Positions 1 through 48,845 of a DNA stretch of 64,000 nucleotides are shown piece by piece. Position 1 is the stretch's first letter. Every line of letters begins with the position of its first letter. Source of the DNA: an uncultured Gammaproteobacteria bacterium (GTDB lineage: Bacteria; Patescibacteriota; Patescibacteriia; S139-126); contig CAZUKA010000001.1 in the NCBI GenBank assembly GCA_964620905.1, forward strand, positions 647,646 to 711,645. Reading direction: 5' to 3'. Made by a program: the position numbers and the translations under genes. A model generated the notes under the pieces. That model ran no database searches and was not told the DNA's origin. It was given only the letters and a program-made list of their open reading frames with translations.

Positions 1-587
1 TTTGCCCCCAGCTTTTCTACCCAAAATAAAGTTTCTTCTTGAAAGGAATAACCATTGCTCTTTATTTTAGCAAACTGAATTTCAGCTAGAATTTGCCGAC
101 GGTAACAGCGAAATCCAGCTGTCACATCTTTGGTTTTTAGTCCTAAAAATAAACGAGCAAAAGTCATGGCCCCCCAACTCATAAATTTCCGCCACCAGTT
201 CCAACCAACAATTCGCCCACCAGCAATACGTCTTGAACCAATGGCCAAATCTGCTCCAGTTTCCAACGCTTGCACCAGTTTTGGTATATCAGCAGGATCG
301 TGTGATAAGTCAGCATCGATTTCCATGATAAAATCAGCATTTTTATCAAGCGCTTTTCTAAAACCGGCTATATAAGCACTACCCAAACCCATTTTGCCCG
401 AACGATGTAAAACTTCGAGTTTGTATTTTTTACTTAAATCACCAGCTATTTTACCAGTATTATCAGGAGAATTATCATCAACTACCAAGACCTCAATATT
501 CAATGGCAATAAAAAAATTTTCTCTACCAGTTTGGGTAAATTTTCCGCTTCATTGTAAGTTGGAATGACAATATAAACAAGTGACAT
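1..587 (-). CDS. Glycosyltransferase family 2, Dpm1-like polyprenol-phosphate glycosyltransferase (start codon at 585-587, 3' end runs off window)
   Basis: Minus-strand translation begins MSLVYIVIPTYNEAENL...VVDDNSPDNTG...EIDADLSHDP, the canonical GT2/DPM1 N-terminus with DXD. The track ORF 130..375(+) is antisense inside it. Confidence 0.7.
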   Translation of the reverse strand, partial: MSLVYIVIPTYNEAENLPKLVEKIFLLPLNIEVLVVDDNSPDNTGKIAGDLSKKYKLEVLHRSGKMGLGSAYIAGFRKALDKNADFIMEIDADLSHDPADIPKLVQALETGADLAIGSRRIAGGRIVGWNWWRKFMSWGAMTFARLFLGLKTKDVTAGFRCYRRQILAEIQFAKIKSNGYSFQEETLFWVEKLGA

Positions 588-592
588 AAATT

Positions 593-2134
593 TTATTCTG
601 CTAAATGAATAAATGTTTCCTTGTCAATATCAACATAATCGCTCAAATCATTGGCATAAATCAGCCGATCTTCTAGTAAAGATAGATCTTGCCCTAAGTA
701 TTGATTTAGAATCAGACGAAAAGTATTGACCGGTGAGATAGAATCATAAAGACTGCTGTAATTTCCGTCATAAAAATAATAAGCATTTAATATAGAAAAT
801 CTTTCATACAAATATTCTGGTGTCAACTGGTCAGTAAGAAAAACATAAGACGAAGCCGGTCCATGATCAGATTGAACTATGATTATGCTGGGACGATTTA
901 TCTTTTCTTTAAGTTCGGTTAAAGTTTTTTTTGTTAAATCTGATATAAATAGTAGTTGATTGCCGTAATATTTTATATAATCTTGTTGCAGACTTTGGTT
1001 GTCTGAATAACTTTTAATAACCATCAGATTATATACAAATTCATTACTAAACATTTGACCGTTTTGATCAAAAACGAACGGTTCGTGGGGCGAGGTTATA
1101 TGGCTAATAACATATTTAGGGCGATCTGGGTTATGATCTGCTATTTTCGGCAAATTGGCAAATGAATATAGAACCCTTTTCCTTTGTGAATCAAAAATGC
1201 TGTAAAAAAGAGCTTTATTTGGAACAATAAAAAAAGGGGTCATATTAATAAACTGATGATGAAAATCATTTAAAACAAATTTGGGTGATAAATAATAATC
1301 GCTTTTTCTCATTTCCGTACCCGGATAGCCAGTTGCAAAACTATAAGTTTCATAACCGCAATCTTTTAAAAATTTCATTATTTTATTTTCTGATAAATTA
1401 CTTATCAAGACTGAATTATCACGCGGAGAAAAATTAAAATTTTTATGGTAATCCAAATTTAAGGTTGATGATAAAGATAATAATGTACGTGGGTAATTGG
1501 TATAACTATTACTAGCTATATAAAAATTATTATCTTTTAAAAATTGAATAAAATTAGAATTATCCAAATTATAAAATTTATTCAAAATATCTTCGCGACC
1601 ATAAGCGTCTAAAACCAAATAATATATATCTGGCTTTATTGTCTCTGATCGGCAAAGCTCAATATCTAAATTTACATTAAATAATTCTTCGCTTGCTCGA
1701 CTATTTTTATTTAATAACTGCCAACCATTGAAACCCAACAAGGTTACTACCATAATGATAGTAAAGACAGATAACTTAGCTAACCAAATTCCTCTAATAA
1801 AGACGATAACAATATAAAGTAAAGGAAAAAAAGCAAAAGAAGCTGGGATTATCAATTTATTTATTGGTGCGGGGAAAGAATATGACTTTACAAAAATAAA
1901 ATCATAGCAAAAAAAATACAAAATAAAAAAAACAGTGGTTATCATAGCTTGCTCTTGGTTGTCTAATACCGACCAACTGACTAGCCAGACCAAAATAAAT
2001 GTAAATATAATAATCAAAGCAACAATATAAATGTCACTAAACTGTAAATAGCCGTAATTATGATTATAAATAAAAACAATCGGAAAAGAAGCCGCAGCAA
2101 AAACTATTAATAAATTTTTGATAGTCTTAAACAT
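593..2134 (-). CDS. Membrane-anchored alkaline-phosphatase-superfamily (sulfatase/LtaS/EptA-like) protein
   Basis: About 170 aa of N-terminal TM helices, then a soluble domain with LVLDAYGRED and a C-terminal IIIVQSDHGP motif typical of sulfatase-fold transferases. Its stop lies 6 nt from the GT2 start, so they are an operon. Confidence 0.5.
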   Translation of the reverse strand: MFKTIKNLLIVFAAASFPIVFIYNHNYGYLQFSDIYIVALIIIFTFILVWLVSWSVLDNQEQAMITTVFFILYFFCYDFIFVKSYSFPAPINKLIIPASFAFFPLLYIVIVFIRGIWLAKLSVFTIIMVVTLLGFNGWQLLNKNSRASEELFNVNLDIELCRSETIKPDIYYLVLDAYGREDILNKFYNLDNSNFIQFLKDNNFYIASNSYTNYPRTLLSLSSTLNLDYHKNFNFSPRDNSVLISNLSENKIMKFLKDCGYETYSFATGYPGTEMRKSDYYLSPKFVLNDFHHQFINMTPFFIVPNKALFYSIFDSQRKRVLYSFANLPKIADHNPDRPKYVISHITSPHEPFVFDQNGQMFSNEFVYNLMVIKSYSDNQSLQQDYIKYYGNQLLFISDLTKKTLTELKEKINRPSIIIVQSDHGPASSYVFLTDQLTPEYLYERFSILNAYYFYDGNYSSLYDSISPVNTFRLILNQYLGQDLSLLEDRLIYANDLSDYVDIDKETFIHLAE

Positions 2135-3839: not shown

Positions 3840-5801
3840 TTATAATAGCGGTGCAATCACGATCGCAATAATCGCCATCAATTTAATCAAAATATTAAGA
3901 CTTGGTCCGGAAGTATCTTTGAAAGGATCACCCACAGTATCACCCACTACCGCTGCTTTGTGTACAGCACTTCCTTTACCACCAAGGTTACCTGCTTCTA
4001 CATATTTTTTAGCATTATCCCAAGCGCCACCAGCGTTGGCCATAATAACTGCCAGTAAAAATCCAGTGACAGTTGAACCAACCAACATACCAGCCAACGA
4101 AGTCTTACCTAAAATCAAACCAACCAACAATGGCATAACTACTGCTAAAACCCCTGGAACAATCATATGTTTTAGAGCACTGGCAGTAGAAATAGCAACA
4201 CAGCGAGCATAATCTGGCTTAGCAGAACCATCCATAATGCCAGCGATTTCTTTAAACTGTCGCCTTACTTCGTTCACCATTTCTTGAGCAGAAGTACCTA
4301 CTGATTTCATGGTTAGAGCGGAAAATACAACTGGTAACAGTGCCCCAATAAACAGACCGATCAAAACTTTTGGATCCAAAACATCAACTACATTTAAACC
4401 AACCACATGTCCATAGGTAATCAACAACACCAAGGCAGTCAAAGCAGCACTACCAATAGCAAAACCTTTACCAATTGCTGCTGTGGTATTACCAACCGCA
4501 TCCAAATTTTCAGCACGCTCTCTGGTTTCATGACCCAACCCGGCCATTTCAGCAATACCGGCTGCATTATCAGCTACTGGTCCATAAGTGTCTGTCGCTA
4601 AAGTAATACCCAAAGTTGCCAACATGCCAACTGCGGCAATAGCTATACCGTAGATACCAGCTTGAAAATATGCTACCCAAATAGCCACACACACTGCTAA
4701 TACAGGAATAATAGTGGACATTAACCCCAAAGCAAAACCGGCAATAATATTTGTCGCTGGTCCAGTTTGAGAAGCTTCGGCAATGCCACGCGTAGGTTTG
4801 TTTTTTTCCGAAGTATAAAATTCAGTCGCCAGTCCAATAACAATTCCTGAAACCAAACCGGCAATAATTGACCAATAAACACCCACGCTGCCGACAGTAT
4901 ATTTGACCAAAAAAAATGAAAATACCGCAACTACCAAAGCTGCTGACCAGATTCCAGCATTTAAAATACCGTGTAGACTTCCAGATTTTCTCATTTTAAT
5001 CACCACGTTTCCAATCAAGGAGGCAATCACCCCTAAACCAGCAACCAATAAAGGTAAAATTGTAGCTTGATCGCCCAATAAATAAGTTGCTGCCGCCCCT
5101 AGAGCCATAGCTGCAATCAATGAATCGCTGTATGATTCAAACAAATCAGCTCCCATACCAGCCACGTCACCAACATTATCACCAACATTGTCAGCAATGG
5201 TAGCCGGATTTCTTGGATCATCTTCAGGAATACCAGCTTCAACCTTTCCGACTAAATCAGCGCCCACATCTGCCGCTTTGGTATAAATACCACCGCCCAC
5301 TCTGGCAAATAGCGCCACGGAAGAGGCACCAAAACCAAAACTATATATAACATTTGGATCTTTGATCAAAGCATATAAAATACCAATAGCCACCAATGAT
5401 AAACCTGTAACCGAAAGTCCCATAACTGACCCAGAAGAAAATGCTACTTTCAAACCAGCAAATAAACTGTGCCTGGCAGCTTCAGCGGTACGTGAATTTG
5501 CCAAAGTAGCAATGCGCATACCAATATTGCCAGCCAAAGCTGAAATAAAAGCACCCAAAACAAAGCACGCTGCTTGCACCCAACCTAGAACCGAAAAACC
5601 CATCAGTAGTGCCACCACAATTATAAAAATTAATAAAATCTTATATTCTTTTTTCAAAAAAGCCATTGCCCCCTCATGGATAAAACCGGCAATTTCTTTT
5701 ACTTTTTCATCCTCCACCTTTGTTTTTTTGATTTTGTAGGCTAGCCAACCGGCATAAACTAGACCGATTGCTCCAGCTACCACACCATACATATAATGCA
5801 T
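3840..5801 (-). CDS. hppA: Membrane-bound proton/sodium-translocating pyrophosphatase
   Basis: [22 protein letters not shown] signature, multi-TM protein, 653 aa. Confidence 0.9.
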
Positions 5802-11418: not shown

Positions 11419-12455
11419 ATGTTTAGATTTGGTTTAATAGCAAATTGCAAAAATTTTTTGGCCAAATTTTTTTTACCTAAATAATAATCCATCAGTCCTG
11501 CCAAAGCTATCATGGTGGCATTATCACCAGTATATGACATAAGAGGTAATCGTAACAGCAAGGAATTTTCTTTAGCGGCGGCAGTCATAACCTGACGTAA
11601 ATTCTGGTTGGCACTCACTCCACCAACCACCGTAACCATTTGGACTTGATTTATCAAAGCAGCCCGAATAGTCTTATCCACCAGTACTTCAACTACTGCT
11701 GCTTGAAAGCTGGCCGACAAATCATTAATTTGTTGGTCAGATAATTCAGCTAATTTTCTGATTTTATAAAGTACGGCGGTTTTCAAACCGGAAAAAGAAA
11801 AATTAAAATTCTTATCTTTGCTCATTGGTCTAGGAAATAAAAATGCTTTGGAATTACCCAAGCTTGCCCGCTTACTTAAAATTGGACCACCAGGATACCC
11901 TAAATTCATAATTTTTGCCACTTTATCAAATGCCTCACCAGCGGCATCATCATAGGTTTTGCCGATAACTTGATAACTATTACTACTTTTCACTAAAACC
12001 AATTCAGTGTGTCCCCCAGAAACAATTAGACTAATAAAGGGGAAAGAAGGGTTGATCAAATTTGACTCACCAACTGGTGGTAACAGAAACGACCACAAAT
12101 GACCAAGTAAATGGTTTACTTCATATAAAGGCTTTTTATGTAACCATGCCAAAGTTTTGGCAGTTTCCCAACCAACCATCAGCGCACCTGCCAGTCCCGG
12201 CCCGCGAGTGGCCGCTACTGCAGTGATATCTTCTATTTTTATTTTGGCTTGTCTGAGAGCTAAATTTATTACCGGTAATATATTTTTTATGTGTTGTCGA
12301 GCTGCAACTTCTGGCACCACACCGCCAAACTTACTGTGCAAATTAATTTGTGAATTTACCACTTGTGTCAAAACAAAAATTCGGTTTTTTTCATAACCAA
12401 GTACTGCAGCTGAAGTCTCATCACAAGAGGTTTCAATTCCTAATATATAAATCAT
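11415..12455 (-). CDS. tsaD: tRNA N6-adenosine threonylcarbamoyltransferase TsaD (Kae1/Gcp)
   Basis: MIYILGIETSCDETSAAV N-terminus and the GGVSANQNLR motif. Confidence 0.9.
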   Translation of the reverse strand: MIYILGIETSCDETSAAVLGYEKNRIFVLTQVVNSQINLHSKFGGVVPEVAARQHIKNILPVINLALRQAKIKIEDITAVAATRGPGLAGALMVGWETAKTLAWLHKKPLYEVNHLLGHLWSFLLPPVGESNLINPSFPFISLIVSGGHTELVLVKSSNSYQVIGKTYDDAAGEAFDKVAKIMNLGYPGGPILSKRASLGNSKAFLFPRPMSKDKNFNFSFSGLKTAVLYKIRKLAELSDQQINDLSASFQAAVVEVLVDKTIRAALINQVQMVTVVGGVSANQNLRQVMTAAAKENSLLLRLPLMSYTGDNATMIALAGLMDYYLGKKNLAKKFLQFAIKPNLNI

Positions 12456-12483: not shown

Positions 12484-14052
12484 TTGACAAAATCAAAAAA
12501 ATATGCTAAACTTGATTGTTTGAGAATAAAATTTATGAAATTACTAAAAACAACAATTATAACACCTTTGATTTTCCTTATCTTAGCTACCGCCTATATC
12601 CAACCGATCCAAGCGGCAAATTTGGAATTTCTTAAAATTGAAATTGCAAACTTAGAAAACGATAAACTAACTATTCGGTGGGTTACCAATCAACCAGCCC
12701 AAGGTTGGTTGCAGGTTGGACAGGAACCGGGAAAATATTTATGGACCATTGCGGGTAATGAATTCAATACCAGTCATGAGGCAACGATTGTTTTGCCGAA
12801 AGAAAATATCACTTATCACTATCGCGTCATTGCTGAAAACAACGAACAGCAAAGAATAACCTCACTGGCCCAAAGCTATAAAGTGAAAAAATTTACCGAC
12901 AATAAACCCCCACAATTTTTATCAATACCAAAAATTCTTTATGTTGACAATCACAATGCTTTTTTGATTTGGCAAACCAATGAACGAACAACGGCCAAAG
13001 TTAAATTTAGTCAACAACCAGATTTATCACAAAGTCGATCAGCCACAGCTAATGCCGATAAAAATAAAAATTACCAAGCCAGAGTTCGTCTGACAAAATT
13101 ACAAGCCAATACTACCTATTATTATGAAGTAATTATTAGTGATGAAAATAAAAATTCTGCTAAAACTGCTGTCCTCAATTTTACCACTCGCTCGCAGGCT
13201 GATCTTGAACCATTGCGACTATTAAACCAAAAACCGCTTGCCAATGAAGATGCAAATATCACTAATTCCAGCATCAAAGCAACTTGGCAAACTAGCAGAC
13301 CAGCCAGCTGCAATTTTCTATACGGTGAGAAAAATAAATCCAAGAAAAAATTAACTGTCAACGAATTTGAAAGCTGGGATCATGAATTTTTGGTAGAAAA
13401 CTTGCGTCCCAATACTGAATATCAATACCAAATAATTTGTTCTGATATATTTGGAAAAAAATTAGATACCGGGAGTATAAATTTCCGTACCAGAGTGCCT
13501 GTGGTTTTAGGTTATGAATATCAAGTTGGTGGCCAACAAAATTTTTATGGTCAAAAATATCAACTGGTCAAAACCCCAACTAGTCCAAATATTTATATTT
13601 TAGTGAACAAACAAAAATATTTAGTAAAATCACCATCTATTTTCACTGCTTATGGTTTTCGCTGGTCAGAAGTAAAAATGATTAGTAAAAAAGAATTGGA
13701 TAAATATACCACCGCCACTTTGGTCAAAACTCCGGAAAGCCCAGCAGTATATTTTCTTTATCAAGGATTGAAAAGAAAAAAAGTTTTACTAACAGAAACG
13801 GCTTTCCGCTCCTACCGCCATAACTCTTTTAGCAAGGTTATTACTGTTAGCCCGCAAGACTTGCAACAATATCCTGATATTGTCTTAGTAAAGGAACCAA
13901 ACAAATCAACCGTTTATCTCTTGCAAGGTGCTAGTAAAAGACCAATCAAAAATATGGAAGCATTATACAAAAACAATCTAGCCTATCAGCCAATCGGCCT
14001 GGTCTCAACAAAAGATTTAAGCTCATATCAAACCGGTGATTTGTTGGAATAA
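12484..14052 (+). CDS. Secreted repeat protein: signal/TM, three Fn3/purple-acid-phosphatase-N-like modules, three ~50-aa C-terminal repeats
   Basis: Hydrophobic N-terminus. The internal repeats TNQPAQGWLQVG / TNERTTAKVKF / TSRPASCNFLYG each end with a YYY/HYRV-type motif. C-terminal triplicate VKTP(T/E)SP..Y.L. The start may instead be MKLLKTT at 12535. Confidence 0.6.
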   Translation: MTKSKKYAKLDCLRIKFMKLLKTTIITPLIFLILATAYIQPIQAANLEFLKIEIANLENDKLTIRWVTNQPAQGWLQVGQEPGKYLWTIAGNEFNTSHEATIVLPKENITYHYRVIAENNEQQRITSLAQSYKVKKFTDNKPPQFLSIPKILYVDNHNAFLIWQTNERTTAKVKFSQQPDLSQSRSATANADKNKNYQARVRLTKLQANTTYYYEVIISDENKNSAKTAVLNFTTRSQADLEPLRLLNQKPLANEDANITNSSIKATWQTSRPASCNFLYGEKNKSKKKLTVNEFESWDHEFLVENLRPNTEYQYQIICSDIFGKKLDTGSINFRTRVPVVLGYEYQVGGQQNFYGQKYQLVKTPTSPNIYILVNKQKYLVKSPSIFTAYGFRWSEVKMISKKELDKYTTATLVKTPESPAVYFLYQGLKRKKVLLTETAFRSYRHNSFSKVITVSPQDLQQYPDIVLVKEPNKSTVYLLQGASKRPIKNMEALYKNNLAYQPIGLVSTKDLSSYQTGDLLE

Positions 14053-14071
14053 TATTTTATTTGCTACTAAT

Positions 14072-14101
14072 AATCCCGCCAAATTTTGGCGGGATTTTTT
14101 T
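14072..14101. terminator. Bidirectional rho-independent terminator
   Basis: aatcccgccaaaatttggcgggatt followed by tttttt; serves the convergent genes on both sides. Confidence 0.65.
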
Positions 14102-14291
14102 AACAAGCGTGAGAGTTTGTATCTCTTACTCTCTCTAAAATTTTTTCAATCGCTTCTTTATTTTTATCCACCAATGTCTGGTGGTATTTTTGAGCACTGA
14201 TTCCTTGCCTAAACTCAGGTTTGGGCAGACGGGAAATAGAAGTGATTGGTTGATCGCTTGGATTGGTTTGGGTTTTTTCTTTTTCGGGCAT
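14100..14291 (-). CDS. Small charged protein (63 aa), sole gene downstream of the T-box riboswitch
   Basis: Strong SD AAAGGAGT, 5 nt, then ATG, lying immediately after the riboswitch terminator. No recognisable family. Confidence 0.45.
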   Translation of the reverse strand: MPEKEKTQTNPSDQPITSISRLPKPEFRQGISAQKYHQTLVDKNKEAIEKILERVRDTNSHAC

Positions 14292-14305: not shown

Positions 14306-14656
14306 ATTTTTGATTGTTAAATGAACAAAATAAAAAGCGCTCTTTGTCCTCAAATTCAAGATTTGACTTAAGGACGAAGAGCGCTTTTCCAAACGCTAAC
14401 CGCGGTACCACCTTAATTTTTCTGAAAAAATTTTCAGAACGCTTTCACATACTCAAAAAGAAATATGTTAGTCCTGTGACGGGAACACCCGTGATAACCT
14501 AATAAATTTTCAGTTATCCAGCTCCAGAGGGAACTTCCCAATTGTTTTATTTCAGGCCTATTCTCAATCACGCTAGGCCCTCCCTGTGAAATAATCACAA
14601 CGGTACTTTCCTCTTTCCATGCTTTTGGCAAATTAGAATGTACTTTACTTAAATAC
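14306..14656 (-). promoter_or_regulatory. T-box riboswitch (tRNA-sensing leader)
   Basis: Minus strand carries UUAAGGUGGUACCGCGG (plus 14400-14414), an exact T-box core. The antiterminator arms UUAAGG/CCUUAA and GCGG/UCGU pair with the 5' strand of a 15-bp terminator (plus 14333-14349 paired with 14372-14388) followed by UUUUUAUUUUGUU. Upstream stem-loops include a GGCCUA...UAGGCC distal hairpin with a GAGAAUAG AG-box-like loop. Confidence 0.8.
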
Positions 14657-14685: not shown

Positions 14686-14710
14686 TATTTACTAGTTCAA
14701 TTCCCTCTAG

Positions 14711-14756
14711 CGACCCCAAGCTAAGCTTGGGCATTGTCACGCTAAGCGTGACCCCA
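14711..14756. repeat. Paired-hairpin repeat element, copy A
   Basis: cgaccccAAGCTAAGCTTgggcattGTCACGCTAAGCGTGACccca: two palindromes with a shared TAA centre, followed by CCCCATTTTT. Confidence 0.6.
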
Positions 14757-14783
14757 TTTTTACATATTTTGACATAGAAAAAA

Positions 14784-14812
14784 CCACTCCGAGATGGGGC
14801 GGTTACATTATT
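14784..14812 (-). terminator. Terminator for the 14828..15232 gene
   Basis: Minus strand CCGCCCCATCTCGGAGTGG followed by TTTTTT (one mismatch in the stem). Sequence-similar to the terminator at 15833. Confidence 0.45.
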
Positions 14813-14827
14813 AACAAATTAAAACAA

Positions 14828-15232
14828 TCAATAATTAAATAGGTATACTAAAAAATAAATAATCAATACAATTATCGCTATATATAAAAACCTAAAAAAA
14901 GTAGATAGAATTAATCGTCTATGGCCCGTTGCTATAAACCTTTCAATCCTTTTTATAATATAAAGTGTTTTGTCTCTATAATAATCTGCTATAACAACTA
15001 GTATCACTAAAATTAAAGAGGGTAATAATATAAATGGCTTACTAATTATCAAATCATAATCCACCTCTCCGTGCCACACATTAGAAGCAACATAAACAAC
15101 AGCTAATATAATGGCCAATAAAATATTTGTGAGATAATAAAGAAAGCGTCCTATTTTGTCGCTCTTATACCATAAAAAAATTGCTATTAATACTCCGAAT
15201 AATGAAATAGCTATTTTTATATACTCACTCAT
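14828..15232 (-). CDS. Integral membrane protein (134 aa, ~4 TM), hypothetical
   Basis: Continuous hydrophobic segments; AT-rich cassette region. Confidence 0.5.
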   Translation of the reverse strand: MSEYIKIAISLFGVLIAIFLWYKSDKIGRFLYYLTNILLAIILAVVYVASNVWHGEVDYDLIISKPFILLPSLILVILVVIADYYRDKTLYIIKRIERFIATGHRRLILSTFFRFLYIAIIVLIIYFLVYLFNY

Positions 15233-15392
15233 ACACCAATTTTAACATAAAAAACGTATTTATGGCTCTTGCCCACTACAATCATAGTTATAATGTCTTC
15301 CACAAATTGCCACCCCATCTTACATAATTTGACAGTAGATTTAGATAAACAAACATCTTTATATAAAGGGGTTTTTTTGATATTATAATATT

Positions 15393-15806
15393 ATGAAAAG
15401 ACATCCTAAATACTTTTATAGTCTACTGACAGTTTTTATAATCCCAACTTTTATTTTTGGTTTCTTAGTTAGAGAAGAATTTACATTTTTAAAACTTTTT
15501 GTTTTTGCTTCCATTGTTATGATAGTAGGAGCTATCTGGGACACTTGGGCAACTCGTCACGGTTGGCGTGATAGTTTCTGGCTTTGGACTTTCAATAAAA
15601 AATATTTATTGGGACCTAGATATTTTGGTATACCCATAGAAGAATATGGGTTTTTCTTTTTTGGAGCAACTTTTACTGTTACTTTATGGGAATTGATATC
15701 TAAATGCCAATTAATACCAAGTAAACAAAACTTATTAGTATTAATAGTTATTTTTTTGTGGCTATTTGCCGCAGTTACTTTGCCTAAATTAAAAGATCCT
15801 GATTAA
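15393..15806 (+). CDS. Integral membrane protein (137 aa), hypothetical
   Basis: Four hydrophobic helices; terminator follows. Confidence 0.5.
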   Translation: MKRHPKYFYSLLTVFIIPTFIFGFLVREEFTFLKLFVFASIVMIVGAIWDTWATRHGWRDSFWLWTFNKKYLLGPRYFGIPIEEYGFFFFGATFTVTLWELISKCQLIPSKQNLLVLIVIFLWLFAAVTLPKLKDPD

Positions 15807-15832
15807 ATATTAATTTAATTTATTTAAAAAAA

Positions 15833-15860
15833 CTGCTCCGAGAGGGAGCGGTTTTATTTA
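15833..15860 (+). terminator. Rho-independent terminator (GAGA tetraloop)
   Basis: ctgctccGAGAgggagcgg followed by ttttattt. Confidence 0.6.
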
Positions 15861-15875
15861 GTAATAATTATTATA

Positions 15876-16115
15876 TTACCTTTTGATGCTAAGAAACATC
15901 ATAGCTACAATTACGAACAAACAACAAAGTACTACTTTACCAGCGATAGCTAAGATTAGAGCGCCTATTGAAAATAAAGTGGCATAAATACGATTTCTTT
16001 TATAAATGGTCACGACATTACTCCTTGAATAATTTGAAAATAACTTTAATTGATTATAATAATACTTTTTGTTTAAAAAGTCAATGCTAGCTTGCCATAT
16101 TCCACGAAAAGTCAT
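15876..16115 (-). CDS. Small membrane protein (79 aa), hypothetical
   Basis: C-terminal TM helix; partly overlaps the alternative ORF 16069..16251(+). Confidence 0.3.
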   Translation of the reverse strand: MTFRGIWQASIDFLNKKYYYNQLKLFSNYSRSNVVTIYKRNRIYATLFSIGALILAIAGKVVLCCLFVIVAMMFLSIKR

Positions 16116-16193
16116 CCCACTATCTGATAATTTTATCGCGAAGTATCTTCTTGATAAGATGAAGTTTTTTTATTGCGATGTTATAATTGAAAT

Positions 16194-16859
16194 ATGCCAA
16201 AACATGAAAATATTCCTCCAATTAGAAAATCAGAAATTCCTGAACTTTTAGAAAGAGGTTTATTTATATTAAATCGTTTGGGATTGAATATTGATGATCT
16301 AAAAGATAAAAAAATATTGGATATTGGTTCAGGTGAAGCTGCTGTAGAAAATTATTTAAAAAGGGCAGGTATTAATAGTATTATTTCAATAGATAAAAAA
16401 CTACCATGGATGTCACTTGATAAAAATATTAATCAAGTAAACGCTCTGGCAGAAAAGTTGCCACTTAAAGATAGTAGTATCGATCTAATTATTGCCCACG
16501 GTGGTCCGCCAACAACGAGTAATTATAAAAAATATTTTGAAAACTATAAAATACAAGATTATGAAGAAGAAAGAGTGGAATCGTATTTAAATGAATTTAG
16601 ACGAGTATTAACTGAAAATGGTGAGGCGAGAATTGCCCCACCCCGTTTATGGTTTATCTATATGAAAAATTTGCACGACCTATATTCTGATAAAAATGAC
16701 TTAACTCCTTCTGAAAAATTTAGTCTTGATTACCTAACAGAAAAACAATCATTGAATTATTTACAAAAAAAATACAATATTTCTCTGCACCAAAATGAAA
16801 TAAATGATAAAGACGATAGATTCAATAAATACTGGGTAATGAAAAAAAGTTATCAATAA
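16194..16859 (+). CDS. Class I SAM-dependent methyltransferase (type 11-like)
   Basis: ILDIGSGEAAVENYL motif I and DLIIAHGG motif; TGtTATAAT -10 element ends 6 nt before the ATG. Confidence 0.65.
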   Translation: MPKHENIPPIRKSEIPELLERGLFILNRLGLNIDDLKDKKILDIGSGEAAVENYLKRAGINSIISIDKKLPWMSLDKNINQVNALAEKLPLKDSSIDLIIAHGGPPTTSNYKKYFENYKIQDYEEERVESYLNEFRRVLTENGEARIAPPRLWFIYMKNLHDLYSDKNDLTPSEKFSLDYLTEKQSLNYLQKKYNISLHQNEINDKDDRFNKYWVMKKSYQ

Positions 16860-16876
16860 ATACCTATTTTTATTTC

Positions 16877-16912
16877 ATGCTAAGCTTGGATTGGGGTCAC
16901 GCTAAGCGTGAT
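16877..16912. repeat. Paired-hairpin repeat element, copy B
   Basis: catGCTAAGCTTGGattggGGTCACGCTAAGCGTGAt; shares the 11-mer gctaagcttgg and the 16-mer gtcacgctaagcgtga with copy A. Confidence 0.6.
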
Positions 16913-16952
16913 TGCAACCTTTGATTATTTTAAATAAGAAAAAACCGATCTA

Positions 16953-17261
16953 CTAAATCGGTTTTAAATTTGGATGACGAGGGATGCTTATTAAATATTG
17001 GTATGGTAATGGCTCAATTAAACTGGGTAAAAATATATCTGGTTTAGCTTTGGCTTGGGGATTACAATCGGGACAATAAGGACGATCAATCGTCACTGAT
17101 TTAACTTCAATTCCATAATCAACTTCCATATCAACACTAACAAATAAAATTGTTGCCTTAGTATGAAGGCAACGCCAAATCACACCTACTTCTTCATCAT
17201 CATCCAGACACATTTTTGCGTGTTCCTCCAAGCGATCAAAATCTGATTTTACTAGCAGCAT
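16953..17261 (-). CDS. Hypothetical acidic protein (102 aa) with CPDC motif
   Basis: ORF only; no family recognised. Confidence 0.35.
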   Translation of the reverse strand: MLLVKSDFDRLEEHAKMCLDDDEEVGVIWRCLHTKATILFVSVDMEVDYGIEVKSVTIDRPYCPDCNPQAKAKPDIFLPSLIEPLPYQYLISIPRHPNLKPI

Positions 17262-17945: not shown

Positions 17946-18083
17946 ATGTTTATCTTTTTTTTACAATAACCTAATTATACTAGCAAAAACTACAAATAAA
18001 TCAACATCTGATTGTTTGTTTGCTTGTCAGACTTATATTTATTATAATATATATACATTTTTATTATCTAAATAACATATTTT

Positions 18084-20935: not shown

Positions 20936-21022
20936 GCCGGGATGGCGGAATTGGCAGACGCGTTGGACTTAAAATCCAATGAGAGCAATCTCGTGGGAGT
21001 TCGATTCTCCCTCCCGGCACCA
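20936..21022 (+). tRNA. tRNA-Leu (anticodon UAA), type II with long variable arm, CCA encoded
   Basis: GCCGGGATGGCGGAATTGGCAGACGCGTTGGACTTAAAATCCAATGAGAGCAATCTCGTGGGAGTTCGATTCTCCCTCCCGGCACCA. Confidence 0.85.
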
Positions 21023-21071: not shown

Positions 21072-21117
21072 GGGAAGCTAAGCTTCCCGCCAAAAAAAGT
21101 TGCGCTCCTAAGCGCGA
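21072..21117. repeat. Paired-hairpin repeat element, copy C (more diverged)
   Basis: GGGAAGCTAAGCTTCCCgccaaaaaaagttGCGCTCCTAAGCGCgag: same AAGCTAAGCTT palindrome plus a CGC..TAAGCG hairpin. Confidence 0.5.
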
Positions 21118-21196
21118 GAAAAATTTTTGTCGATCATCAGTACACTGAAAGTAAGACAATCTAGATTTGTCCTCTCAGTCTGACCGGCAGAGACAA

Positions 21197-21229
21197 GAGA
21201 AACCCCCGACAAAATAACGGGGGTTTCTC
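21197..21229. terminator. Strong hairpin downstream of the yggU-like gene
   Basis: gagaaacccccgacaaaataacgggggtttctc; weak U-tract. Confidence 0.4.
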
Positions 21230-21230
21230 T

Positions 21231-21503
21231 TTAGAAAATAGTTTTTTTTAATTTTTCAACTGCGTCAACTGGCAAACAAATTCTTTTTTTATTGGTGGTA
21301 AAACCTCTGACTATTTTCAACTCGCTCGTGGGTATAGACAAAAAATCAGCCAACAAATCAAGTAATTTTGTATTGGCTTGACCTTTTATGGGCGTAACAG
21401 CCAATTTTACTTTTAGAAAATCATTTTGCCAGCCAATAATCTCATTGCAACTTGATCTGGTAATTACTTTTACTGTCAAAAAATTATCTTTTTCTTTGCT
21501 CAT
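21231..21503 (-). CDS. DUF167/YggU family protein
   Basis: KVKLAVTPIKGQANTKLLDLLADFLSIPTSELKIVRGFTTNKKRI. Confidence 0.65.
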   Translation of the reverse strand: MSKEKDNFLTVKVITRSSCNEIIGWQNDFLKVKLAVTPIKGQANTKLLDLLADFLSIPTSELKIVRGFTTNKKRICLPVDAVEKLKKTIF

Positions 21504-46933: not shown

Positions 46934-46951
46934 ATGTTCCACGTGGAACAA
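46934..46951. promoter_or_regulatory. Perfect palindrome copy 1 (TGTTCCACGTGGAACA core), 2 nt upstream of the alr ATG
   Basis: aTGTTCCACGTGGAACAa; identical core to the copies at 48081 and 48824. Confidence 0.5.
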
Positions 46952-48080: not shown

Positions 48081-48102
48081 AATTGTTCCACGTGGAACAA
48101 TT
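48081..48102. promoter_or_regulatory. Perfect palindrome copy 2 (22 bp: AATTGTTCCACGTGGAACAATT)
   Basis: Directly after the alr stop and upstream of tRNA-Ala(GGC). Confidence 0.5.
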
Positions 48103-48823: not shown

Positions 48824-48845
48824 TTTTGTTCCACGTGGAACAAAA
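48824..48845. promoter_or_regulatory. Perfect palindrome copy 3 (22 bp: TTTTGTTCCACGTGGAACAAAA)
   Basis: About 60 nt upstream of the CorC/CNNM gene. Confidence 0.5.

Follow-up and report, generated by a model that had tools for sequence, protein, structure and literature searches.

The stretch of DNA analysed here, referred to as the window, comprises 64,000 nucleotides (nt) of contig CAZUKA010000001.1, shows a GC content of 35% and encodes a TsaD protein whose closest named homologues belong to Patescibacteria/CPR (candidate phyla radiation). The window contains three copies, named A, B and C, of a paired-hairpin repeat (Table 1). Copy A adjoins a fragment resembling the 3' end of a tRNA, copy B lies near the right edge of a low-GC variable gene slot and copy C is downstream of tRNA-Leu(UAA). 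Together with related loci (designated by L and a number), these copies are probably insertion elements of about 30 nt found in CPR/Patescibacteria, made of two hairpins whose arms are derived from the target, directed to tRNA and transfer-messenger RNA (tmRNA) ends and linked to a GIY-YIG nuclease gene. Syntenic relatives were found through homologues of the 522-amino-acid (aa) protein encoded at 12484-14052. They share the gene order ValRS, TsaE, TsaD, a 504-507-aa protein and a T-box leader; the shared order continues with tRNA-Glu, HSP20, VanW, tRNA-Gly and tRNA-Leu in L033/L034 and L046, and does not continue in the L035 group.

Table 1. Positions of the double-hairpin copies, the tandem arrays and the accompanying features (ORF, open reading frame; SAM, S-adenosylmethionine).
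Sequence	Feature	Position	Strand	Remarks
Window	tRNA 3'-end-like fragment, 23 nt	14696-14718	+	layout 7+5+7+1+3 nt, read from the sequence
Window	Copy A	14712-14756		two perfect 17-nt palindromes: CCCAAGCtaaGCTTGGG (14715-14731) and GTCACGCtaaGCGTGAC (14736-14752)
Window	Copy A, inserted bases (31)	14719-14749	+	AGCTAAGCT (core 1), TGGG-CATT-GTC, ACGCTAAGCGT (core 2)
Window	Copy A, right target-site duplication (7 nt, GACCCCA)	14750-14756	+	two copies in the window, one in relatives
Window	Spacer (TTTTTACATATTTTGACATAG) and bidirectional GAGA-loop terminator	14757-14810		repeat family D13; motif search, BLAST
Window	Variable slot, window-specific, low GC	14805-16923		not alignable to L033, L035, L046
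Window	ORF	14828-15232	-	in variable slot
Window	ORF, Lycopene_cyc domain	15393-15806	+	Pfam
Window	ORF	15876-16115	-	in variable slot
Window	Class I SAM methyltransferase, Methyltransf_11	16194-16859	+	Pfam
Window	Copy B	16879-16912	+	hairpin 1 GCTAAGCTTGG (16879-16889) without its 5' arm; hairpin 2 TCACGCTAAGCGTGA (16897-16911) intact
Window	tRNA-Leu(UAA)	20936-21022	+	ARAGORN and Rfam; copy C starts 50 nt downstream
Window	Copy C	21072-21115	+	hairpin 1 GGGAAGCtaaGCTTCCC (21072-21088); hairpin 2 GCGCTcctaAGCGC (21102-21115), weaker and degenerate
L022	Tandem array	13-104		adjoins tRNA-Leu; units bounded by the same short target
L032	Tandem array	106-280 and 620-860		between tRNA-Tyr, the GIY-YIG gene and tRNA-Thr; units bounded by the same short target

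The three sites at which the initial annotation placed paired hairpins are all present, as judged by sequence, folds and a covariance model. Copies A and B have in common an 11-mer and an exact 16-mer, GTCACGCTAAGCGTGA, as the annotation had also reported, and the 16-mer is well above chance, the expectation being 0.1 matches at three or fewer mismatches. The DNA-fold z-scores are -4.9 for A, -2.9 for B and -4.0 for C, the fold of copy A reaching -14.1 kcal/mol, and the covariance-model scores with filters off are 61, 32.7 and 15.7 bits, respectively. This model (R1), built from 14 copies, gives no other match in the 64 kb of the window with filters off. In copy B, hairpin 2 is extended by G.U pairing on the + strand, and the internal segment TGG-ATT-GGGGTC retains complementarity to GACCCC..CCA. 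An assembly artefact is excluded, since an independent assembly, L054 (run SRR10807626), reproduces all three copies, with 100% identity over 14,370 base pairs (bp) spanning A, B and C.

Copy A is a recent insertion of 31 bases, accompanied by the 7-nt duplication GACCCCA, into the tRNA-3'-end-like fragment. The site is empty in three syntenic relatives, L035, L033 and L046, in which 38 nt are absent. In L035 the empty site shows ...TTCAACTCCCTCTAACGACCCCA directly followed by TTTTTACATATTTTGACATAG..., and the filled site of the window shows ...TTCAATTCCCTCTAGCGACCCCA (AGCTAAGCTTGGGCATTGTCACGCTAAGCGT GACCCCA) TTTTTACATATTTTGACATAG... (alignment A2). BLAST homology to L033, L035 and L037 ends at 14718 and restarts at 14750/14758. 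With an insertion, a target duplication and three related genomes lacking the copy, the view of the initial annotation that the repeat is mobile, in the manner of repetitive extragenic palindromic (REP) sequences or MITEs (miniature inverted-repeat transposable elements), is borne out. The segment between the two cores, TGGG-CATT-GTC, corresponds to the reverse-complemented target (TGGGGTC), which the spacer divides 4+3. The fragment that received the insertion shows, in order, a T-loop (TTCAATT), the 3' strand of a T-stem (CCCTC), the 3' strand of an acceptor stem (TAGCGAC), a discriminator C and CCA, and it ends in the left copy of the target duplication (7 nt, 14712-14718). It occurs once in the window; L035 and L033 retain it with substitutions, and the L046 version is degenerate. 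No tRNA is called on the fragment by ARAGORN or Rfam, as at 23 nt it is too short, and it has no tRNA body; its putative identity as a tRNA 3' end is based on its layout and on the analogous loci L008, L021 and L045.

The same layout is seen in 22 elements: a target sequence T, a GCTNAGC core, the reverse complement of the target, rc(T), split by an A/T-rich spacer of 2-5 nt, a second GCTNAGC core, and T again. With the fuller form of the cores it reads T - (A)GCTNAGC(T) - rc(T) - (AC)GCTNAGC(GT) - T. T is a stretch of the local target measuring 5-11 nt, of which empty sites have one copy and filled sites two. Besides GACCCCA in copy A, examples are GACCACCA in L009, GACTGCCA in L021, (GGA)CTCACCTC in L040 and CCCACC in L051. 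Constancy is limited to the two short palindromic cores, whereas the outer stem arms repeat the target in inverted form. Direct repeats of 6 nt or more flank 14 of the 22 elements, against 21 of 456 mismatched flank pairs. The core is the symmetric GCTNAGC, because the loop centre can be A, T, C or G and is mixed within single elements (TAA and TTA in L051, TCA and TAA in L040). Different tRNAs within single contigs (L021, L031 and L032) carry elements whose arms match their own ends; this speaks for arms made at insertion from the target and against a fixed guide that travels with the element. Targeting directed by a guide, as in the IS200/IS605 family, is unlikely, since in these contigs it would need 7-nt retargeting at each hop. 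The tandem arrays reuse the same T, with four GGTGCC repeats in L022 and four to six units in L032, and fit repeated insertion into a target that is regenerated by each insertion.

Outside the window, public genomes were scanned with the pattern AAGCTAAGCTT..CGCTAAGCG, which gave 15 matches, roughly the chance number; at least four of these loci, L008 (Berkelbacteria), L009 (a low-GC metagenome-assembled genome, MAG), L012 and L014 (Minisyncoccia), show palindromes extended by different, mutually compensating outer stems, with spacers of 2-5 nt. A second pattern, AGCTAAGCT N6-20 ACGCTAAGCGT, which leaves the arms free, gave 16 loci in metagenomes, about 11 of them true copies. In total, the pattern scans of public genomes and metagenomes provide about 20 further copies, nearly all of which abut the end of a tRNA or tmRNA gene, and the named hosts belong to the CPR groups Berkelbacteria, Minisyncoccia and Beckwithbacteria. 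The viral contigs scanned show no match to the motif, and a phage origin was rejected on this ground. In the alignment of 14 strict-pattern copies (A4), 97.4% of the pair cells are standard and 8 of the 14 pairs change on both sides, the six innermost pairs being invariant by construction of the search and the outer pairs free to vary. In 500 shuffles, the observed values were never reached on four of five measures, the count of pairs changed on both sides was reached once, and slid controls show 19-37% pairing. R1 finds further copies and arrays in the fetched loci, and no match above 14 bits in 60 kb of the relatives.

Several other identities were considered for the motif. A known RNA family was rejected: Rfam 15 has no match to A, B or C at the gathering score, and with the threshold relaxed to E<=10 neither copy A nor L021, L031 and L032 gave a meaningful one. 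Literature searches turned up no description of the present family. Nor is the motif the abundant generic terminator that the initial annotation had allowed for: as a rule there is no U-tract, separate canonical terminators follow the motif and the copies occur in both orientations. Hairpin 2 of copy A alone happens to precede a T-run (CCCCATTTTTA), which the other copies do not have. A transcription-factor operator was discarded because the outer arms covary and only the centre is fixed, and restriction-site avoidance of GCTNAGC because there is no depletion (16 sites against 7.4 expected). A contig of a Thermofilaceae archaeon MAG (L015, about 5154-5206, and L024), L015 being a fifth match of the genome scan, shows a cluster of the repeats AAGCTCAGCTT, AAGCTAAGCTT, ACGCTAAGCGT and AAGCTAAGCT with a 22-bit match to the model; this cluster is ambiguous between the same family, a chance match and a binning error.

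ARAGORN places the element directly at the ends of tRNAs for Phe, Ala, Glu, Asp, His, Met, Leu, Ser, Tyr and Thr. It is directly 3' of the tRNA and on the same strand for Phe, Ala, Glu, Asp, His and Tyr; 3' of the tRNA on the opposite strand, with one base shared, for Met, Leu-CAG, Leu-GAG and Ser; directly 5' of tRNA-Thr in L032 and L050 and of a truncated tRNA in L009; and after a duplicated tRNA 3' end in L008 (Leu-UAA) and L021 (Glu). In loci selected by the nuclease it is also found on tmRNA 3' ends. The element prefers to insert, in either orientation, at the termini of tRNA and tmRNA genes, mostly at the discriminator-CCA 3' end and at times at the 5' end, or at leftover end fragments. 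In the tRNA-proximal hairpin, the terminal nucleotides of the gene serve as the 5' arm, as in ACCA-AGC taa GCT-TGGT. A tRNA-Leu(UAA) of Berkelbacteria likewise has an element downstream.

Other palindromes and insertions are also associated with tRNA genes in these genomes. A second kind of small insertion 3' of tRNA genes, of about 100-170 nt, in some cases with AAACCGTGGGTTT, ends in a duplicate of 19-23 nt of the tRNA 3' end; it is present in L008 (5660-5780), L021 (291-447 and 905-1050) and L033 (13520-13686), and the tRNA-Glu of the window does not have the one found in L033. L035 shows at 13548-13605 a different GC-rich hairpin insertion (CCTACGCTAACCTGCCTGCAGTTAGGCAAGGCAGGCAG...) with CCAT flanks, at a CCCCAT site homologous to window positions 15311-15318, so more than one hairpin-insertion family exists in these genomes. 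The perfect palindrome TGTTCCACGTGGAACA occurs three times in intergenic positions of the window (46935-46950, 48084-48099 and 48827-48842), around the tRNA-Arg/Ala and tRNA-Ala genes, and looks like an operator for a dimeric regulator.

Copy C, which the initial annotation had correctly put just after tRNA-Leu, is an old copy, conserved downstream of this gene and found at the same position in L033 and L046. Across the three genomes hairpin 1 shows GGGA/TCCC, GGGA/TCTC and GAGA/TCTC, a compensatory change, and hairpin 2 has in L033/L046 another sequence that still pairs (GCGCA..TGCGC). Given this conservation with compensatory change, old copies can persist under structural constraint, which keeps an RNA-level role open for transcribed copies. 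A stretch of about 65 nt downstream of copy C (21128-21192, TGTCGATCATCAGTACACTGAAAGTAAGACAAT...CAGTCTGACCGGCAGA) shows much stronger conservation than the spacer around it when the window, L033 and L046 are compared; it precedes a terminator at about 21200-21232 and may be a small RNA co-transcribed with tRNA-Leu.

Selection on structure could also be invoked for the family as a whole. The paired hairpins would then primarily be functional RNA or single-strand structures of tRNA units, kept by selection and not spread by transposition. As 3'-trailer or 5'-leader stem-loops they would hide the CCA end, direct or prevent processing, or make the mRNA of a downstream GIY-YIG gene more stable. The passage of copy C from GGGA/TCCC to GAGA/TCTC through a G.T intermediate while being kept in three genomes is consistent with such a role, as are the location of most copies on the transcribed unit, between the tRNA or tmRNA end and the next terminator or ORF, the G.U-type pairs in some stems, and the resemblance of hairpin 2 and the distal target copy to a minihelix of 7-8 bp followed by discriminator-CCA. 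Copy A argues against it: three relatives lack this copy, which adjoins a tRNA fragment of 23 nt without a tRNA body and lies upstream of a divergent T-box promoter. The elements are moreover found in both orientations relative to the tRNA and with TAA, TTA, TCA or TGA loops even within one element, the flanking duplications are longer than hairpins need, tandem arrays exist and no Rfam family matches. Selected RNA structure is an unlikely explanation of the family.

The inverted copies of the flanks could also be scars of repair or footprints of excision. A homing nuclease would have broken the DNA at tRNA ends, or a larger element would have been excised, and snap-back templated synthesis would have healed the site, leaving inverted flank copies behind like the palindromic P-nucleotide footprints of hairpin-forming transposases. 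The order T - palindrome - rc(T) ... rc(T) - palindrome - T is expected from hairpin opening or snap-back on both sides of a break, and the variable, A/T-rich spacer, the 16-23 nt of tRNA duplicated by other insertions at the same tRNA ends and the adjacent GIY-YIG genes agree with this origin. However, random repair would not give the same GCTNAGC cores across phyla and tRNAs, the arm lengths are regular (about 4+3 to 7+4 nt), and the three relatives show no trace of a former larger element at the site of copy A, which leaves scars a very improbable source.

For insertion elements, a candidate enzyme is indicated by the neighbouring genes: the element sits beside a 90-aa GIY-YIG gene wherever this gene was sampled. 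The stand-alone ORF encodes the catalytic domain only (PF01541). The gene adjoins the element in three of the 13 motif-selected loci: in L014 and L017 its start is 18-26 nt beyond the element, and in L032 it is about 65 nt past the last repeat of the array. Conversely, all six loci picked by the GIY-YIG protein alone, L040 (CP011210.1), L043, L045, L049, L050 and L051, carry the element, with R1 matches of 21-44 bits beside the ORF. In these nuclease-only loci the elements abut tRNA-Tyr, tRNA-Thr, tmRNA or a tRNA-Glu-like fragment, and the GIY-YIG ORFs follow tmRNA or separate tRNA-Tyr from tRNA-Thr. In nine loci, the repeats are accompanied by a PF01541 GIY-YIG gene. The 90-aa family is widespread, its named sources being Roizmanbacteria, Yanofskybacteria, Pacebacteria and Beckwithbacteria.

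Palindromes are also found within and beside GIY-YIG genes. Three of the nine 90-aa genes (L014, L050 and L051) encode LDAKRRE with the codons CTCGACGCTAAGCGTCG(A/G)G, which form a 19-nt perfect palindrome in L014 (3391-3409) and L051 and show one mismatch in the outermost pair in L050 (about 1666-1684 in both L050 and L051), in each case inside the GIY-YIG ORF. The in-frame palindrome inside the GIY-YIG genes is CTCGACGCTAAGCGTCGAG; because the LDAKRRE palindrome contains the second core, ACGCTAAGCGT, the nuclease gene itself carries the motif. L033 shows at 13764-14122, compared with window positions 17946-17990, a different GIY-YIG gene, of 81 aa, with GC-rich hairpins at the 5' end of tRNA-Glu; this insertion has a 16-nt duplication (TTATGGCGCCATCGTC) and is absent from the window.

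The GIY-YIG nuclease would act on the element or on its target and mobilise the element in trans, as the REP-associated tyrosine transposase (RAYT) does for REP sequences and their paired form (REPIN); by this analogy, mobilisation in trans is a serious possibility, somewhat short of an even chance. At a staggered break the palindromic cores would fold back and prime copying of the single-stranded target, so that rc(T) would result on both sides and the duplication would come from gap repair; that the target-derived arms arise by such priming is doubtful. Put as a whole, the 90-aa GIY-YIG protein would drive insertion, the two cores of 7-11 nt would be the sole heritable part and fold-back priming would generate the rest anew at each hop by copying the tRNA or tmRNA terminus in inverted form, a scheme that uses no transposase of a known family and is offered tentatively. 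The insertion chemistry itself is, with similar reserve, possibly new. Transcribed copies in tRNA trailers or ahead of the nuclease ORF may secondarily act as RNA stem-loops.

Several points weigh against insertion elements of this kind or against parts of the proposed mechanism. The distal target copies match only in part in L019, L014 and L020. The length of the duplication varies between 5 and 11 nt, unlike that produced by classical transposases, and known GIY-YIG homing enzymes make 2-nt staggers, not 7-8 nt; the variable duplication and the lack of a known 7-8 nt GIY-YIG stagger weaken the fold-back step. The 64-kb window contains no GIY-YIG gene that could supply a trans-acting enzyme for copy A. 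The compensatory change in copy C, the G.U-type intermediates and the position between tRNA and terminator fit a selected RNA or structural role equally well. The motif-selected loci were found with core-forcing patterns, and their core invariance is by construction; nevertheless, the GCTNAGC core is no artefact of the search patterns, because the independently chosen nuclease loci show the cores GCTCAGC, GCTTAGC and GCTAAGC.

The variable slot between copies A and B contains the four ORFs listed in Table 1. Its GC content (14.8-16.9 kb) is 27-30%, against 35-40% in the flanks, and the comparison with L033, L035 and L046 shows that the segment is absent from all three. The same slot holds one 96-aa ORF in L033, a 60-aa ORF in L046 and six unrelated genes (NUDIX, EamA and others) in L035. 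The SAM methyltransferase that the initial annotation recognised in the segment is supported by its Methyltransf_11 match; two of the cassette ORFs have no Pfam match, and no recombinase, integrase or transposase domain is found in the cassette proteins. GAGA-loop terminator-like hairpins are present at about 14784-14810 and 15826-15860, in agreement with the terminators annotated at 14784 and 15833. Promoter-like sites number 22, against 18.6 expected; TGTTATAAT (16179-16187) and TGATATTAT (15378-15386) each end 7 nt upstream of an ATG. The spacer next to copy A recurs alone at 15311-15339 and, as a diverged spacer-plus-terminator module, at 16913-16965; it is also found in the relatives, with BLAST counterparts of the module at 12185-12230 in L033 and at 12178-12210 and 13608-13654 in L035. 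Repeated terminator/spacer modules and small paralogous minus-strand ORFs form the borders of the slot, which is a hypervariable islet.

Copy B sits 5-11 nt inside the right edge of the window-specific segment, homology to L033 restarting at 16924; L033 shows no clear counterpart, perhaps only a decayed remnant. Copy B has lost its left arm precisely at the core, and this junction may owe its form to a break or recombination there. The initial annotation had regarded A and B as recombination sites, similar to att or attC, between which the 2.1-kb cassette entered by site-specific recombination. The direct orientation of A and B around a low-GC segment absent from the relatives speaks for this model, together with the nearness of copy B, with its hairpin 1 cut exactly at the core, to the right breakpoint (about 10 nt) and the complementarity of its internal arm to the target of copy A. 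On the left side, 47-55 nt (spacer and terminator, 14750/14758-14804) common to all relatives separate copy A from the breakpoint, so the cassette is not bounded by the element. Furthermore, L035, L033 and L046 have other cassettes or none and all are without copy A, the slot edges are repeated spacer/terminator modules in all genomes, the cassette has no integrase or recombinase domain, and the perfect 7-nt duplication of copy A points to an independent event. Recombination between A and B is therefore most improbable. What stands of the earlier proposal is that the low-GC cassette is absent from the relatives; A and B neither define nor deliver it. We infer that the cassette is an independent gain in the variable slot, and copy A is an insertion that entered later, beside the islet.

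Small class I SAM-methyltransferase-like ORFs are beside the element or tRNA ends in three unrelated loci: the window (16194-16859), L045 (506-1102) and L021 (1259-1954). The proteins of the window and L045 show weak N-terminal similarity (33% over 81 aa), and the idea that the element carries the cassette as cargo was rejected.

As an insertion element, the repeat is closest in kind to REP/REPIN-RAYT systems, bacterial MITEs, mitochondrial hairpin repeats and the free-standing GIY-YIG genes of phage tRNA clusters, and it does not show the features that define REP/RAYT, integron attC and intrinsic terminators, nor those of any Rfam family. REP/REPIN sequences are imperfect palindromes with a conserved 5' GTAG-type tetranucleotide, occur in many copies per genome without duplicating their target and are thought to be mobilised in trans by RAYT, an IS200/IS605-like Y1 HUH transposase. 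They resemble the element in being short, GC-rich extragenic palindromes, often paired, with dispersed non-autonomous copies and a flanked gene for a small single-domain nuclease. The element differs in that the neighbouring enzyme is GIY-YIG and not an HUH/Y1 transposase (nine loci), that it has no GTAG-type tetranucleotide, shows a duplication of 5-11 nt and has three copies in 64 kb, that only cores of 7-11 nt are constant and the arms are target copies, and that it targets tRNA and tmRNA termini, whereas REP sequences target generic intergenic DNA. MITEs include the Correia elements, Rickettsia palindromic elements (RPEs) and Nezha. Like them, the element is non-coding and shows inverted-repeat-like ends (A-GCTAAGC... 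/ ...GCTTAGC-GT), target duplication and filled and empty alleles; copy A has all of these, with the ends AGCTAAGC / GCTTAGCGT, the GACCCCA duplication and the empty sites in L035, L033 and L046. Unlike MITEs, at 31 nt the element is several-fold smaller, the target's reverse complement forms its interior, its duplication varies in length and it has no known parent insertion sequence (IS); no IS with ends of this type turned up in the loci read, among which no dedicated IS search was made.

The attC site of integrons is a single long imperfect R''/L''-L'/R' hairpin with a GTTRRRY core, which bounds each cassette and has an integrase nearby. The element shares with attC and with the att sites of tRNA integrases the structured palindromic sites near variable cassettes and the use of tRNA 3' ends as insertion points, with the end duplicated. 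It differs from attC in having two separate 7-bp hairpins, no GTTRRRY core and no integrase in the cassette, and in not bounding cassettes, and from att sites in its duplication of 5-11 nt and its insert of only 31 nt.

Mitochondrial hairpin repeats comprise the double-hairpin elements of Allomyces, the repetitive hairpin-forming elements (RHEs) of sponges and yeast GC clusters such as GC42, whose duplicated target is AG (PMC4478555, PMC2800124); the GC-rich PstI palindromes of Neurospora flank tRNA genes (Yin et al. 1981, as cited in PMC4478555/PMC2800124). These repeats and the element have in common GC-rich single or double hairpins in small AT-rich genomes, insertion polymorphism, a short duplicated target, tandem arrays and a frequent position next to tRNA genes, and the mobilising enzyme is not known in either. 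The element is, like the double-hairpin elements and GC clusters, a short GC-rich double hairpin with insertion polymorphism and a duplicated target, a likeness of kind only. The differences are its bacterial (CPR) host, the GCTNAGC core, the longer duplication (5-11 nt), stems that covary with the target, insertion exactly at the CCA or the 5' terminus, and the consistent GIY-YIG neighbour. Phage T4 SegB is encoded by a small free-standing GIY-YIG gene between tRNA genes, which is presumably inherited by cleaving alleles lacking it (PMC2330249). The small CPR GIY-YIG gene is likewise found between tRNA genes, but the CPR proteins are catalytic domains of 90 aa without a DNA-binding extension and are accompanied by a dispersed hairpin repeat that also inserts alone.

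If the proposed mode of insertion is correct, the element would represent a new class of mobile DNA that moves by target-templated transposition. CPR/Patescibacteria genomes are regarded as streamlined and repeat-poor, and here a mobile repeat marks tRNA and tmRNA ends in several candidate phyla. Its small size and target-copied stems are not predicted by the mechanisms of REP, MITEs or integrons and point to an unexplored insertion chemistry, in which a structure-specific GIY-YIG nuclease may take part. For CPR assemblies, the motif accounts for the GC-rich palindromes and short duplications seen at tRNA ends; it also offers a marker for insertion polymorphism at strain level and is a candidate substrate for the very abundant "hypothetical" 90-aa GIY-YIG proteins.

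On the other side of copy A, the window shows a full-length T-box leader on the minus strand (14367-14628, 110 bits), followed by a conserved ORF of 58-64 aa (14100-14291, minus strand) ending in ...(S/C)HAC; neither an aminoacyl-tRNA synthetase nor a transporter gene follows the T-box. The same arrangement of T-box and small ORF is present in L033 and L035, where the T-box was scored, and in L046, where it was recognised by eye. An apparent TTGACA-17-TATAAA promoter is located at 14685-14657.

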